In this document: piece after piece, positions 9,788 through 55,716 of the stretch | Layout: each line of letters opens with the position of its first letter | How positions within the stretch are numbered: the first letter of the stretch is position 1 | DNA from: a virus | Lineage: Duplodnaviria > Caudoviricetes | Virus record (IMG/VR): IMGVR_UViG_3300034111_001607 | Span: 880 to 64,879 of that record | Reading direction: 5' to 3' (one strand) | DNA length: 64,000 nucleotides | Notes under the pieces: generated by a model | What the model was told of the DNA's origin: nothing | The model's input: only the letters and a program-made list of their open reading frames with translations | The model's database searches: none | Made by a program: the position numbers and the translations under genes

Positions 9788-12169
9788 TTAACTTGCACAT
9801 ATTATAAATGTTAAAAGCTCTTCGTAACGAAGACCATAAATATAAGTTTTTTTATCTTCTTTTAAATCTTTACAAAACAAACCGTAACTTTCAGGGGTTA
9901 AACCATTATCAATAAAAACCTGTGCTACTTGTTGTGCAATAAAACCTGCGTGTAATCTTGCACTCTTACCCTTACTTTTAACTGCGTCTTTAAATTTAAA
10001 CATACAACCCATTGTTTTTAGTGTTTGTGCAACTGTGATTTCAGTAGGGGTAAAACCTCTTATATCTTGTTTTGCATTTTCATCTGAAGTGTTGATTGCA
10101 CCAGTTGTTGCAAAAACAGTAGTATATCTGCGTGCAGCCTCTCCAAGTGCAGTTGTATTGTCTACAATTGGACGTACTACGTTACCATTTCTTATTTGTA
10201 TTCCACCACCGCTTGCAACCGCTATTGACAAGTCTCCAATACTTGAATTGGAAAAAGTTGTTGCAAGACCTGCACTACCTACAACTCTTAAAAGCCCACC
10301 ATCTGTTGTTTTTAGCTCTTGATGAATAAAAGGGTATCTACCACTATTTTTATAACCTAAGATACCTTGCATTTGTGGGTTGAAATCACCCAAGCTATTT
10401 CCTGTGAAAGTTCCACTTCCTGAAAAATTGATATTTGCAAATTCTCCATTTACACCCCAGCCACCATTGTTTATTGAACTTGCATTATTTGCATCAATAG
10501 TCGCACCATTAAATTGATAAAAGCCATGACTAATATTGCCATCTGCTATTACACTATCAGCATCAAGGTTTGCACCATCGGTGGCAGAATAACCATTTGC
10601 ACCATTATTAAAAGATTTTGTACTATCACATAACATTCTTGTTGTACCTCTTCCTTCGTACCCATTTGTTAAATTTCCAACTGCAATACTTGAAGCTACA
10701 TTCAACATTGATAAACTTGTTGACCAGTAGCCATTTAACCCATTGCCACAAGAATAACCAAGTGAAAAAGCAGAATTACTACACTCATCTCCAATACAAC
10801 CGTCCTCCCCATTGCCATTTGTAATTGAAAATTTTGCACGCATATTACTTGAACCTGAGGTATAAATACCTCTTTTTCTGTTCGCACAAGAAATAATAAA
10901 GTTCATTGAAGCAAAAGCAGAACCTTCCATTGCAAAACCTTGTTCACCCCAACCATAAAGACATATATCAGCGTTTGTTCCAACTCCACCACCACCCATA
11001 GCAGTTGTATTTGAACTTGCACCACCAATAATTCTTGGTGCATTAATAACTATACCGTGTGCTCCTTGTGTTCCAGTGCCTGCTAATACATCCCAGTCTC
11101 CAATAAATACTGCACCGCCTGAAAAATCAAAAAATGCTCCATTATGAAATGAAAAGCCATTATCTCCAGTCCATTGAATTTTTGTAGGTAATTTTTTAAT
11201 AGTTACACCGGTTATTGACGCTAAACTTGGTGGGGTTGCACCGTGATATGTATTATTTACTGTTATTGTACTTGCGGTAACATTAGTCACTTTCCAACAA
11301 CCTGTTACCCATACTACATTTGTTGTAGAAGGCACAAGCGTTCTTATTAATACAAAATCGTTAATTGCTAAACCTGTAGTGCTTGAAATACCACTAAAAG
11401 TAACTGCATAATTTTTTGCACTTCCAGTATAAGAAGAACCTGTTGCACTATATGAAGTTCCACTTGTAAAAATAAATTTTAATGCGTTACCACTACAACC
11501 CTTAACATATCTTTCAGTGGTATAGTTATAAGAACCAGCAGTTACTATAATTTCACAATCAACTGCTTGTATATGATGACCATCAAAAGGCGGTATTCCG
11601 TTGTATACATAACTTTTACTTACTCCAAAATCAACATTTTTATTAAAAGCAATAGCATTATTAATTGCCGTTGTGTCATCTGTTACGCCATCGCCTACCG
11701 CTCCAAAATCTTGAACCGTTATTTGATTTGAAGCATTATTTAAAAGCAAATAAGCCGTGCCGTTATATCTAACATAAGCATCTTTATTCGGTGAAAGTTC
11801 GCCACCAGTTAATGGAGTTCCGCCCTCTGTTAGTAAATTTACGGCAGTTTGTCCGCTGACTGAAATTGTTGAAGCACCTGTATTTGCATTTAATGGACGG
11901 AAGCGAATTAATCCGCCGTTGATATTTTCATAAACTTCATAACGCCCACTATCTGCTATTAAATTATAAGCATTTACAATTCCAGTGTCTTCAAAAAAAT
12001 CTGCTGCGTTAATGTATGTTGTTAAAAGGCTTGCGTTTTGCTCGTAATCTGTAGTTGATGAAATACCATTATTAACAGATTGCATCATTAATTCAAGTGT
12101 TTTTGGTGCATCATTGAAATTATCCGTTGTAAGAGTAGTGCCGTTAGGAAGTGGATATTTATTAGCCAT
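9788..12169 (-). CDS. Tailspike, beta-helix with C-terminal intramolecular chaperone (peptidase S74)
   Basis: VQDFGAVGDGVTDDTTAI, N/G-rich beta-helix repeats, NTSDENAKQDI...HAGFIAQ...LRYEEL. Confidence 0.9.
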   Translation of the reverse strand: MANKYPLPNGTTLTTDNFNDAPKTLELMMQSVNNGISSTTDYEQNASLLTTYINAADFFEDTGIVNAYNLIADSGRYEVYENINGGLIRFRPLNANTGASTISVSGQTAVNLLTEGGTPLTGGELSPNKDAYVRYNGTAYLLLNNASNQITVQDFGAVGDGVTDDTTAINNAIAFNKNVDFGVSKSYVYNGIPPFDGHHIQAVDCEIIVTAGSYNYTTERYVKGCSGNALKFIFTSGTSYSATGSSYTGSAKNYAVTFSGISSTTGLAINDFVLIRTLVPSTTNVVWVTGCWKVTNVTASTITVNNTYHGATPPSLASITGVTIKKLPTKIQWTGDNGFSFHNGAFFDFSGGAVFIGDWDVLAGTGTQGAHGIVINAPRIIGGASSNTTAMGGGGVGTNADICLYGWGEQGFAMEGSAFASMNFIISCANRKRGIYTSGSSNMRAKFSITNGNGEDGCIGDECSNSAFSLGYSCGNGLNGYWSTSLSMLNVASSIAVGNLTNGYEGRGTTRMLCDSTKSFNNGANGYSATDGANLDADSVIADGNISHGFYQFNGATIDANNASSINNGGWGVNGEFANINFSGSGTFTGNSLGDFNPQMQGILGYKNSGRYPFIHQELKTTDGGLLRVVGSAGLATTFSNSSIGDLSIAVASGGGIQIRNGNVVRPIVDNTTALGEAARRYTTVFATTGAINTSDENAKQDIRGFTPTEITVAQTLKTMGCMFKFKDAVKSKGKSARLHAGFIAQQVAQVFIDNGLTPESYGLFCKDLKEDKKTYIYGLRYEELLTFIICAS

Positions 12170-12207: not shown

Positions 12208-12268
12208 CAAATCCGCCATTCAATTTTTTAACCTGTATTGAAAAACAGGCGGACTTGTTGCCAAGTCC
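12208..12268 (-). ncRNA. Candidate cis-regulatory pseudoknot/switch RNA, copy A
   Basis: 27/29-nt core shared with 55071-55099, with a compensatory pair change; lies just downstream of a TTGACT promoter. Confidence 0.6.
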
Positions 12269-12274
12269 ATATAA

Positions 12275-12302
12275 GAAATAATTTACTCTTTTATAAAGTC
12301 AA
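12275..12302 (-). promoter_or_regulatory. sigma70-type promoter for the tailspike/fibre/lysis genes
   Basis: TTGACT-N16-TATTTC. Confidence 0.45.
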
Positions 12303-49541: not shown

Positions 49542-49548
49542 AAATCAA

Positions 49549-50085
49549 TCAATTAAATAAATTAGCTATTTTCTCCCAAGTTTCAGGGGTTTGTTCTTCT
49601 AAAAGGTTTGTGTTAAAATCACAAAACTTTCCAACTGGAAGTATATGAATTATTTGGTGTATTTCTAAACCTTTTGCAATATAAATATGGTCTTTTTTGT
49701 TTGTATTTAGTAAATTAAGAACATCAAAAAGTGTTATTGGTCTGCCAAGAATTTGAAAATCTATTACCTTGCCGTGGTTTTGTCGTATTTTATCGGTTAA
49801 ATACAATTGCATATTCCCCCAGTATTCTGTTACAAAAACTTGTTTATACACATCGTTATAATTAGTCGGTTTACTCGCTCCACAAGCAATACCGATTGCT
49901 GAACCATTTATAAAATCTCCTTTAAAATTTACATAGACTCTACATAAATTACCTGCATCGGTATTGCCAAAATTAAAAAACTCCCTCTCCAAAGCCTCAT
50001 CTAAGGTTTTTGCCGTGGGGTTATTATTCATAATTACTTTTTCCCATATCTTTTTGTAGTGTGGGTTTTGTAGTGCGTTTTGCAT
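49549..50085 (-). CDS. Hypothetical protein, tandem paralogue 2
   Basis: Shares KKIWEKVIMN, ILGRPITLFDVL and EEQTPETWEKIANL with 50089-50547. Confidence 0.7.
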   Translation of the reverse strand: MQNALQNPHYKKIWEKVIMNNNPTAKTLDEALEREFFNFGNTDAGNLCRVYVNFKGDFINGSAIGIACGASKPTNYNDVYKQVFVTEYWGNMQLYLTDKIRQNHGKVIDFQILGRPITLFDVLNLLNTNKKDHIYIAKGLEIHQIIHILPVGKFCDFNTNLLEEQTPETWEKIANLFN

Positions 50086-50088
50086 AAA

Positions 50089-50547
50089 TCAATCAATTAA
50101 ATTAGCTATTTTCTCCCAAGTTTCAGGTGTTTGTTCTTCAATTAAATTACTTTTATTGTTTATATCGCATATCTTTTTTACAAAATATTGGAATATATCA
50201 TTAGAAGTATTGCGTGTGACATCAATATTACACAACACAACACAGTTGGTCATTAACGCAAACTCACCGTTCTCTATATTTTTTTGTAACAATTTTAAAA
50301 CATCAAAAAGAGTTATTGGTCTTCCTAAGATATTATAGGTTTTGTCGTAAATTTTTCCCATCTTATTAGACATATCAAAATTTACAATATTTATATGTGA
50401 CGTCGTCTTTGTTAAACCATAATAACACCCAACTTGTGAAAATTCTAATACCAAAGCCTCCTCCAAAGACTCCGCCTCTGGGTGTCTATTCATTATTACT
50501 TTTTCCCAAATCTTTTTGAAGTGGAGGTTGTTAAGTGCTTCTTGCAT
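50089..50547 (-). CDS. Hypothetical protein, tandem paralogue 1
   Basis: Same three conserved blocks as 49549-50085. Confidence 0.7.
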   Translation of the reverse strand: MQEALNNLHFKKIWEKVIMNRHPEAESLEEALVLEFSQVGCYYGLTKTTSHINIVNFDMSNKMGKIYDKTYNILGRPITLFDVLKLLQKNIENGEFALMTNCVVLCNIDVTRNTSNDIFQYFVKKICDINNKSNLIEEQTPETWEKIANLID

Positions 50548-50641
50548 AATATTTTTGATTAATTATTTTCTTAAAGTGATTGGTATCATTTCAGAGCAAA
50601 GGATTTTTATTTCTTGTTTTATCATAAACATATTAAATAGT

Positions 50642-53191: not shown

Positions 53192-53316
53192 AATGTTATA
53201 TATTAGTTATACTCAATATAACAACATACTTTTTTAAATGTCAAGTAATTTCTTTGTTTTTTTCTTTGTTTTTTTCTTGACTTTATAAAAACAATAATTT
53301 AATACTTTCATAACTA

Positions 53317-54363: not shown

Positions 54364-54366
54364 AAA

Positions 54367-54645
54367 ATGATAACAGAAAAACAAGTAGAGAATTTTTTTG
54401 ATATTCATTGTGTAGAATATGATTATAAACAATATCAATTTACATTTACACATAGAAAGAAAAGGAGAGCAATTGCTATCATTGCTTATTCAGCAAGTTG
54501 TTACACTCAAAGTGAAATAGAAAAATGTATAAAGAAAGCAATAAGATTATTTCATAGACAATATATTTTAAAAGAAAAATGTTATTTTATTAATTACCGT
54601 AATATTTCAAAAATTTTGCCGAAACCTCGTTTTATTCACTATTAA
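54367..54645 (+). CDS. Hypothetical protein
   Basis: Coupled ORF. Confidence 0.45.
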   Translation: MITEKQVENFFDIHCVEYDYKQYQFTFTHRKKRRAIAIIAYSASCYTQSEIEKCIKKAIRLFHRQYILKEKCYFINYRNISKILPKPRFIHY

Positions 54646-54650
54646 GTTAT

Positions 54651-54860
54651 GTGGGTTTTGTAATAAGCAAAGTATAGCCCCACTTACTCTAATTTAACAA
54701 AATGTTAAAACCCCAAAGGCAAAACCTAAGACTTCAATTAGGTAAAGCTATACAACCGCCTCCAGCCCGAGTTTCCACATTTCAAGAATGTGGCAGGTTA
54801 AGCCTACGCTTCCCACGGTTTGATTTACAATTAAGAAACCTTAAAATGCTAGCAATTGCG
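54651..54860 (-). ncRNA. Candidate multi-stem structured ncRNA
   Basis: ORF-free and GC-enriched; several helices whose G-U pairs work only on the minus strand. Confidence 0.5.
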
Positions 54861-54867
54861 ATATAAT

Positions 54868-54941
54868 ATTCACAGGCTGGATTTGAACCAGCGTCATTAA
54901 GTTATTACCCCTAATATGCTTCCAGACTACACCACTGTCAA
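54868..54941 (-). tRNA. Aberrant tRNA-like element (Met/Ile-like; pseudo-tRNA or decoy)
   Basis: Cloverleaf with T arm GCTGG-TTCAAAT-CCAGC and D arm GTGT-AGTCTGGAA-GCAT; 8-nt anticodon loop GGTAATAA; G3:G70 mismatch; no CCA. Confidence 0.65.
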
Positions 54942-54951
54942 TATCTTGGAT

Positions 54952-54980
54952 ATTATAAGATTCTACTTTTTTAATGTCAA
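54952..54980 (-). promoter_or_regulatory. Perfect sigma70 consensus promoter for the tRNA-like/ncRNA transcript
   Basis: TTGACA-N17-TATAAT. Confidence 0.85.
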
Positions 54981-54991
54981 CTTTTTTTTTC

Positions 54992-55019
54992 TTGACTTTT
55001 TAAAATTATAAAATATTCA
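54992..55019 (+). promoter_or_regulatory. Rightward promoter, back-to-back with the previous one
   Basis: TTGACT-N16-TATTCA. Confidence 0.45.
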
Positions 55020-55043
55020 TATTCATAATTCTTGCAAGGAATT

Positions 55044-55117
55044 GTACCATAATCAAAAGTTATGGTACACCCTCTTTTTCAATAGAGGTTAAAAAATTGG
55101 AAGGGTGTACTATTAAC
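55044..55117 (+). ncRNA. Candidate cis-regulatory pseudoknot/switch RNA, copy B
   Basis: Same core and architecture as 12208-12268. Confidence 0.6.
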
Positions 55118-55131
55118 TTATATAAACGATT

Positions 55132-55587
55132 ATGTCAAAAGATATTGATTTTTCTTTTCAAAAAGAACTAAGGCGGGATATAACAAAACTTCAACAAGAA
55201 CTTGAACGCAAGCAGAGTATTTTAAATAAATACCGAAATGAAATGCCAACATTAAATCTTAATGAATTTGAATACTTATATTTCACAGATGAATTTGTAC
55301 TTGAAAAAACAAAAAGAGCAGGATTTTGGTTAAGATGTGAAAAAGCACAAAAAATAATATACGATTTAAAAGATATGTATAATATTGACGGTGTGTTGAA
55401 ATTAGACAAATTTTCAAAAACTAAAATGTTTTCAGGACTATATTTACATTATGCAGAGTGGCTTGGAGAAGAGTATTACAAGTCTGCAAAAATACAAATA
55501 TTTGAAGTATTGCGTAAGCATTCTCTTGAATTAGAATGTTATGTAACAACTTATGGAGATATTGCTACTATACTTGGTGTAATTTAA
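55132..55587 (+). CDS. Hypothetical protein
   Basis: 151-aa ORF directly downstream of RNA element B. Confidence 0.6.
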   Translation: MSKDIDFSFQKELRRDITKLQQELERKQSILNKYRNEMPTLNLNEFEYLYFTDEFVLEKTKRAGFWLRCEKAQKIIYDLKDMYNIDGVLKLDKFSKTKMFSGLYLHYAEWLGEEYYKSAKIQIFEVLRKHSLELECYVTTYGDIATILGVI

Positions 55588-55716
55588 TACTAAAAATTTA
55601 TGAACAAAACGATTATGCCAAATCTTGAAAAAGAGTGGGAGAAAAAAGAAATATCAAAATAATGGTTGACTTTTTGGGAAAAGGCTTTTTAAAAATATTA
55701 AACCTATTGAATTTAT

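Follow-up and report, generated by a model that had tools for sequence, protein, structure and literature searches.

Two copies of a small structured RNA element are present in the genome of the phage examined here, and the pseudoknot at the centre of the element represents, as judged from its sequence and predicted fold, one unit of the wcaG RNA motif in diverged form. Each copy comprises an upstream hairpin, a pseudoknot and a clamp helix that closes the pseudoknot. The 5′ strand of the clamp doubles as the 3′ arm of the upstream hairpin (7 bp in copy A and 9 bp in copy B), so hairpin and clamp are mutually exclusive. The kinship to the wcaG pseudoknot unit is new, having been absent from the earlier note on this DNA, in which copy B was described as one of two copies of a switch RNA.

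The phage record is 64,879 bp in length and has direct terminal repeats; the window, i.e. the whole 64,000-nt stretch that was analysed, covers nearly all of it, and the G+C content across the window is 30.8%. Sheath, baseplate, tape-measure, terminase, tail-fibre, anti-repressor, replication-initiator and amidase genes are encoded. The DNA runs listed as containing the stretch bear the labels lake water, freshwater or plain metagenome, except for one with a small share, which is labelled fungus metagenome; no RNA run is among the runs listed. When nearest phages were sought by DNA, none was found in the phage collection. Two adjacent ORFs, at 49549–50085 and 50089–50547 (−; region 49544–50549), contain stretches that are 77–93% identical (repeat families D5, D11 and D16) and look like a tandem gene duplication. 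A Shine–Dalgarno-like tetramer was observed upstream of only 6 of the 75 ORF starts in the window. The motif TAAYT precedes 38 of the 75 ORFs (14.5 in shuffles, sd 3.3), with a sharp peak at −18/−17 (25 cases), and frequently constitutes the stop codon of the preceding gene, the spacing being fixed. TAACT is found at −18 of the gene after copy B, and TAACA at that position for the gene after copy A.

Copy B is located at 55044–55117 (+), where the sequence quoted in the earlier note is found exactly as given, and copy A is located at 12208–12268 (−). These are the only two occurrences in the 64,879-bp record. They lie in opposite orientation, 43 kb apart, and have in common a core of 30 nt, CCUNUUUUUCAAUANAGGUUAAAAAAUUG, that is identical at 29 of 30 positions. 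The ungapped alignment of the two copies has 53 columns, and the core differs at one position in each S1 arm. An 18-nt core with no more than three mismatches occurs twice, as compared with 0.06 occurrences expected, and two or more were obtained in only 1 of 100 shuffles.

A cTTGACTTTnTAAAA promoter box is situated approximately 30 nt upstream of each copy. That of copy B, a −35-like TTGACT at 54992–54997 (+), belongs to a box family (repeat family D14) and is conserved in the orthologous metagenome stretch L109; that of copy A, TTGACT at 12297–12302 (−), overlaps the TGA stop codon of a 232-aa baseplate gene and is present in the orthologous stretch L108. The box also precedes many other blocks of genes on either strand, frequently in divergent pairs. 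Examples are found at 53277 (+), 53244 (−), 44576 (−), 44624 (+), 34863 (−) and 51393 (−), and many of the boxes are followed, about 27 nt further on, by a conserved TATAACTAAT box to which no role has been assigned. We infer that elements A and B are 5′ leaders, the transcripts of which would begin at the upstream hairpin or immediately before it. Adjoining the copy B box, back to back, is a perfect TTGACA-N17-TATAAT promoter (54952–54980, −) for the tRNA gene at 54867–54942 (−), the single tRNA gene in the record (ARAGORN: Ile, anticodon AAT; Rfam tRNA, 38.2 bits).

The core folds as an H-type pseudoknot, with S1 CCUNU/ANAGG and S2 UUCAAU/AUUGRA. It consists of a 5-bp S1, a UU loop, a 6-bp S2 and an A-rich loop of 7 nt, and the enclosing clamp has eight pairs, with 10–11 possible at the cost of two S1 pairs. 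In copy B, the upstream hairpin (55044–55068, +) has 9 bp and a 7-nt loop, TCAAAAG, between the arms GTACCATAA (55044–55052) and TTATGGTAC (55060–55068). The pseudoknot core follows at 55071–55101 (+): S1 is formed by CCTCT (55071–55075) and AGAGG (55084–55088), L1 is at 55076–55077, S2 is formed by TTCAAT (55078–55083) and ATTGGA (55096–55101), and the A-rich L3 is at 55089–55095. The clamp helix (55063–55112, +), which encloses the pseudoknot, pairs 55063–55070 with 55105–55112. In its extended form, it pairs 55063–55073 with 55102–55112 (TGGTACACCCT with AGGGTGTACTA); the alternative helix that had been described as 11–12 bp in length and about 20 nt before the ATG is 11 bp long and ends 19 nt before ATG 55132. 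An additional small 5′ hairpin, AAUUCUUGCAAGGAAUU (55027–55043, +), is confined to copy B, was observed in every fold computed and is identical in L109. The ORF after copy B (55132–55587, +) encodes a protein of 151 aa, which was called unknown in the earlier note and indeed has no Pfam or PHROG family.

Copy A is situated between the 232-aa baseplate-wedge gene and a tail-fibre/tail-spike-like ORF of 793 aa (9788–12169, −; phrog_7121, phrog_1171) that lies downstream of it. Its upstream hairpin, GGACUUG-GCAA-CAAGUCC (12251–12268, −), has 7 bp, and its clamp and knot extend over 12208–12257 (−), with 12250–12257 paired to 12208–12215 and the helix extendable to 10 bp. S1 (12245–12249/12232–12236) and S2 (12237–12242/12219–12224) of this copy are at the site of the wcaG model matches described below. 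The helices read CCUGU/ACAGG (S1) and UUCAAU/AUUGAA (S2) in copy A, and CCUCU/AGAGG and UUCAAU/AUUGGA in copy B. The core of each copy is read through by a short ORF, in the same frame in both, of 16 codons in copy A (12219–12269, −) and 7 codons in copy B (55062–55085, +). A leader peptide was considered as a candidate and rejected, as the S1 covariation changes Tyr to a stop codon.

Both regions fold considerably better than their shuffled counterparts (z −4.44 and −4.35), and none of 200 shuffles of either region folded as well. An alignment was constructed from copies A and B and the metagenome orthologues L108 and L109, i.e. two paralogues and two near-identical orthologues. Standard pairs were found in 76 of 76 pair cells; the paired share and the covariation score were reached by none of 500 shuffles, and controls in which the positions were slid paired in 29–47% of cells. 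Seven pairs change on both sides, comprising six of the eight clamp pairs and one S1 pair. Between the two copies the clamp has diverged at seven of its eight pairs, as compared with the nearly perfect identity of the core, a contrast that points to recognition of the core by its sequence, and to a clamp in which only the pairing is constrained. In L109, one S2 pair changes from U.G to U-A, and the other change lies in the loop of the copy B hairpin; the sole change in L108 is within the loop of the copy A upstream hairpin. Contigs from two of four further sequencing runs contain the element in identical form, and therefore add no covariation. At three pair positions G.U is used in one copy or the other, where the opposite strand would have a C.A mismatch, so the structure is attributable to sense-strand RNA.

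It is apparent from the pairings, the shuffles and the covariation that the claim of a structured RNA element in two copies was correct, and comparative data of this kind indicate that it is a real, selected RNA structure. The flanks of the two copies, which had been reported to be unrelated in sequence and yet to keep both the hairpin and the mutually exclusive clamp, do so with changes on both sides in six of the eight clamp pairs. The preservation of two helices through these six double changes likewise upholds the argument made there for selection on structure over recent duplication.

A metagenome scan returned 18 stretches, of which only L108 and L109 carry the element; their source is a phage approximately 94.5% identical to the one studied here. 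The leader in L109 is 94.6% identical over 277 nt, up to the first codons, and the ORF behind it encodes an unrelated protein of 113 aa (L109 60–401, −). The leader has been kept while the ORF has been replaced, which marks the RNA as the conserved unit and the gene as a swappable cassette. An ORF of 20 codons at 55600–55662 (+), MNKTIMPNLEKEWEKKEISK, ends in 16 residues that match the C-terminus of the 113-aa ORF of L109; it is apparently a scar of cassette exchange. Positions 54364–54862 of the window, containing an ORF of 92 aa and its flank, are missing from L109. For the tail-fibre gene, only the first 430 nt or so are common to L108, the rest being unmatched (L108 1–1250 against 9788–11736), a divergence that probably represents the usual mosaic of receptor-binding parts. 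Only two homologues of the 151-aa protein were found, with 68% (P0043) and 62% (P0044) identity, and locus searches with the 151-aa or the 232-aa protein singly yielded nothing.

Further searches for the element were negative. With our own model of the element (R1) and a model of the wcaG core (R2, described below), no element was detected in 80 loci around relatives of the baseplate protein (33–47% identity) or in 16 further loci from pattern scans, and the wcaG cut-off was reached by none of 50 whole related viral records (of 80 baseplate-relative records). Exact core patterns were absent from viral contigs; loosened patterns yielded no matches and then six chance matches. A clamp-anchored pattern returned 35 stretches, none of which contained the knot on inspection, and none of 16 stretches from a genome scan was real. 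Among these 16, a Neobacillus record with 25 nt of identity was rejected, as it is without S1 and the clamp.

The wcaG RNA motif (RF01761) was described in 2010 (Weinberg et al., PMC2864571). In a permissive Rfam scan, the copy A region matched this family with 26.8 bits (E 0.0016 for the region), and copy A scored 28.3 bits (E 7e–5) when the wcaG model was run against the whole record. The gathering score of the family is 42 bits; the true wcaG RNAs of phages Syn9 and S-RSM4 score 78.6 and 92 bits, respectively, and no wcaG RNA was found in P-SSM2. A set of 80 viral loci was collected by a pattern for the wcaG 5′ linker, UGGUGCGGA, and R2 was built solely from 48 distinct 3′ cores of the cyanophage type, leaving out three truncated or broken loci, cores running off the end of the locus and duplicates. 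The 48 cores form a covarying H-type pseudoknot with 99.4% of cells paired; none of 500 shuffles reached their paired share or covariation score, and both partners have changed in five S2 pairs and in two S1 pairs. In the window, searched on both strands with filters off, R2 ranks copy A first (23.6 bits, E 0.0022), and the next match scores 10.9 bits. Over 707 kb of other loci, true wcaG RNAs scored 61.8 and 45.8 bits and L108 scored 23.6 bits, while the best unrelated match reached 15.1 bits.

The likeness between the two cores is apparent when they are divided into their parts. The wcaG core reads GC/CUGG/UUU/CCAAUU/U/CCAG/UCAAAG/AAUUGG/U/GGCG and that of copy A reads GC/CUGU/UU/UUCAAU/-/ACAGG/UUAAAAA/AUUGAA/U/GGCG; both are 37 nt in length, with the same order of parts and near-equal part lengths. 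As in copies A and B (12251–12268 and 55044–55068), a hairpin is found directly 5′ of the pseudoknot unit of wcaG, and both RNAs are viral and aquatic. Copy B has no match to wcaG with either the Rfam model or R2 at E values of up to 10, since its clamp has ACCC/GGGU in place of CGCC/GGCG. It corresponds to the wcaG 3′ unit in part, S1, S2 and the loops being kept, and R1 gave no match to true wcaG. Any link of copy B to wcaG is solely through copy A.

R2 also matches the 5′ half of a true wcaG RNA (27.3 bits; locus L008, 1559–1599, −), and S1-like covariation (GAG/CUC, AGG/CCU and AGAG/CUCU) is observed in the 5′ half of canonical wcaG. Together, these two results indicate that canonical wcaG consists of two tandem knot units, whereas the element described here consists of one. 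Upstream of copies A and B, the UGGUGCGGA linker and the 5′ unit are absent; all 80 canonical loci have them, as the pattern by which these loci were collected requires. The closing helix of wcaG is a fixed 3–4-bp CGC(C)/(G)GCG; here its place is taken by an 8–11-bp clamp that competes with a hairpin. A hairpin and T-run after the knot, defined as a perfect stem, 5 bp or longer, abutting a run of T5 or longer within 75 nt, was found in 47 of 67 distinct canonical loci and in neither copy here. A TAnnnT box comes after the T-run in 45 of the 67, and the hairpin loop contains a TTGCAT/TTGACA box; the two boxes suggest that the terminator overlaps the promoter of the next gene, of which no mention was found in the available portions of the wcaG literature.

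The genomic settings differ as well. Among 23 representatives of the ORFs downstream of canonical wcaG, 18 match Pfam, mostly as nucleotide-sugar or glycosyl enzymes, and five have no match. Epimerase, GDP_Man_Dehyd, CTP_transf_like, NTP_transferase and glycosyltransferases are included, together with several 2OG-Fe(II) oxygenases, one methyltransferase and one S-layer homology protein. The neighbours here are a tail-fibre gene and an early gene of no known family, and the carrier is a 65-kb myovirus-type phage of 31% G+C, rather than a T4-like cyanophage. The element is accordingly not a member of wcaG, as it scores below 42 bits and lacks the 5′ unit and linker, the usual neighbours and the usual tail. 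In the available portions of the wcaG literature, only the 2010 description and cyanophage genome papers repeating it were found, and the corresponding portions of PMC2864571, PMC9964418 and PMC9602691 give no ligand or function.

The energies of the two states were calculated from nested folds in which either the hairpin or the clamp was enforced; the knot, which is compatible with both, was ignored. The ensemble energies for the hairpin and clamp states were −34.0 and −30.5 kcal/mol in copy A, and −30.7 and −33.6 kcal/mol in copy B. In these nested folds, therefore, the states are 3–3.5 kcal/mol apart but in opposite directions, A favouring the hairpin and B the clamp. In the clamp state of copy B, the freed CAUAAUC is predicted to pair with GAUUAUG at the start codon, leaving it with a probability of 0.02 of being unpaired. 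Nothing comparable was observed at the start codon of copy A (0.64 versus 0.74 unpaired). Consistent masking of the start codon was therefore rejected, occlusion being predicted in copy B only. Since the favoured state differs between the copies and the start is occluded in just one of them, no common output is visible. A hairpin plus T-run 3′ of the knot is absent in both copies, and scans of the sense strand downstream of them turned up no site resembling an intrinsic terminator. A loose terminator scan flags both upstream hairpins, with a U5 run beginning 4–6 nt past an A+U-rich stem; the numbers of terminator-like sites are not above those in shuffles (12 versus 9.0, and 4 versus 2.6).

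The reading tentatively preferred here, to which we would give slightly less than an even chance, is that copies A and B are a cis-acting 5′-leader module that switches between hairpin and clamp, with the knot recognized by some input. They would be paralogous leader RNAs, each transcribed from a cTTGACTTT-type phage promoter and composed of a variable hairpin, a 30-nt sequence-constrained knot and a variable clamp closing the knot. The knot may serve as the recognition module for a trans-acting input, such as a small molecule, a protein, the polymerase or the ribosome. By virtue of the strand shared by hairpin and clamp, the knot could be accompanied in the leader by either the hairpin or the clamp, giving two states, and the choice of state would set the fate of the downstream message, through either access to the translation start or the stability of the 5′ end. 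The coupling of the knot to a terminator in canonical wcaG, and to a hairpin and clamp here, represents a modularity that is typical of sensor RNAs.

Several known systems resemble the element in part. The preQ1-I and SAM-II/SAM-V riboswitches are small H-type pseudoknots of 35–50 nt with a short S1 and an A-rich third loop along S1. The element has in common with them the short S1, the A-rich third loop and the size range, and no Rfam match to preQ1-I, SAM-II, SAM-V or other catalogued pseudoknot riboswitches was obtained for either region at E values of up to 10. The leader of the T4 gene 32 mRNA contains a 5′ pseudoknot, and there the ligand is the product of the downstream gene. As in the element, the pseudoknot is at the 5′ end of a phage message without strong ribosome-binding signals; the difference is that the downstream gene here is exchangeable.

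The chief competitor of the switching leader is a fold that is static and mechanically stable and serves to protect or mark transcript ends, with neither ligand nor switching and with the upstream hairpin merely guiding folding. It could shield the message from 5′-end-dependent RNases as a 5′ stabilizer, or else lie between the baseplate message and that of the tail fibre as a barrier or a site of processing. Such a fold is consistent with the position of the copy A hairpin, which begins about where the transcript should start, with the exchangeable downstream gene, as expected of a portable module, with the location of canonical wcaG units, which in 47 of 67 loci immediately precede terminators and are close to the ends of transcripts, and with the failure to discern a consistent output platform. 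We nevertheless consider it somewhat unlikely, because it leaves unexplained the full-length competitor hairpin in both copies, in addition to a clamp much longer than the 3–4-bp closing helix of wcaG, and because a near-perfect core beside a freely varying clamp suggests specific recognition. An action in cis on RNA polymerase that renders two divergent operons resistant to termination appears improbable. The putL and putR RNAs of phage HK022 reportedly act in this way against termination; the put RNAs are found as two promoter-proximal copies in divergent operons, with compensatory differences between them. The element resembles them in copy number and placement, having two opposite copies, each just behind a promoter, with compensatory differences, and it is likewise independent of the adjacent gene. 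However, the put RNAs consist of two stem-loops rather than a pseudoknot, and the sense strand downstream of both copies is devoid of recognizable intrinsic terminators.

Still less probable is a repeat that functions at the level of DNA, as a site of protein binding or recombination, or a recent duplication without RNA function. A 30-bp near-identical core, inverted and 43 kb apart, might be expected of such a repeat, but it would not account for unrelated flanks that keep two helices through six double changes, nor for G.U pairs that would be C.A mismatches on the other strand; in addition, as weak evidence, no rearranged junction was found in the run contigs examined. It is scarcely credible that the 151-aa protein binds both RNAs and autoregulates its own synthesis. 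The earlier note had put forward the 55132 protein as a candidate autoregulatory ligand, and its gene does adjoin copy B, although copy B only; no such gene is found beside copy A, which speaks against a ligand of both RNAs. L109 keeps the RNA and carries the unrelated 113-aa ORF in place of the gene, and no RNA-binding or other family was found for the protein, of which just two homologues are known. The comparison of genes downstream of homologous elements that had been suggested there revealed no constant partner.

If the switching leader is considered further, the knot might be a ligand-sensing aptamer shared with wcaG that has been rewired from a terminator to the hairpin/clamp platform, so that tail-fibre production and the early-gene slot would respond to a metabolite of the host, perhaps a sugar precursor of the cell envelope. 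This extension is speculative and rather unlikely; the idea of a sugar precursor derives from the genes that accompany wcaG in cyanophages. The exchange of the gene behind copy B in a close relative is a caution against reading gene neighbours as partners. The occurrence of the knot in a different type of phage, with different genes and a different downstream part, suggests that it is a portable module. The wcaG RNA, a riboswitch candidate, has awaited an explanation since 2010, and the element described here would represent a minimal, single-unit version of it. Copies A and B are a pair of short natural variants suited to probing and to reporter assays and, if the aptamer is indeed shared, no simpler natural form than these two small copies would be available in the search for the wcaG ligand.
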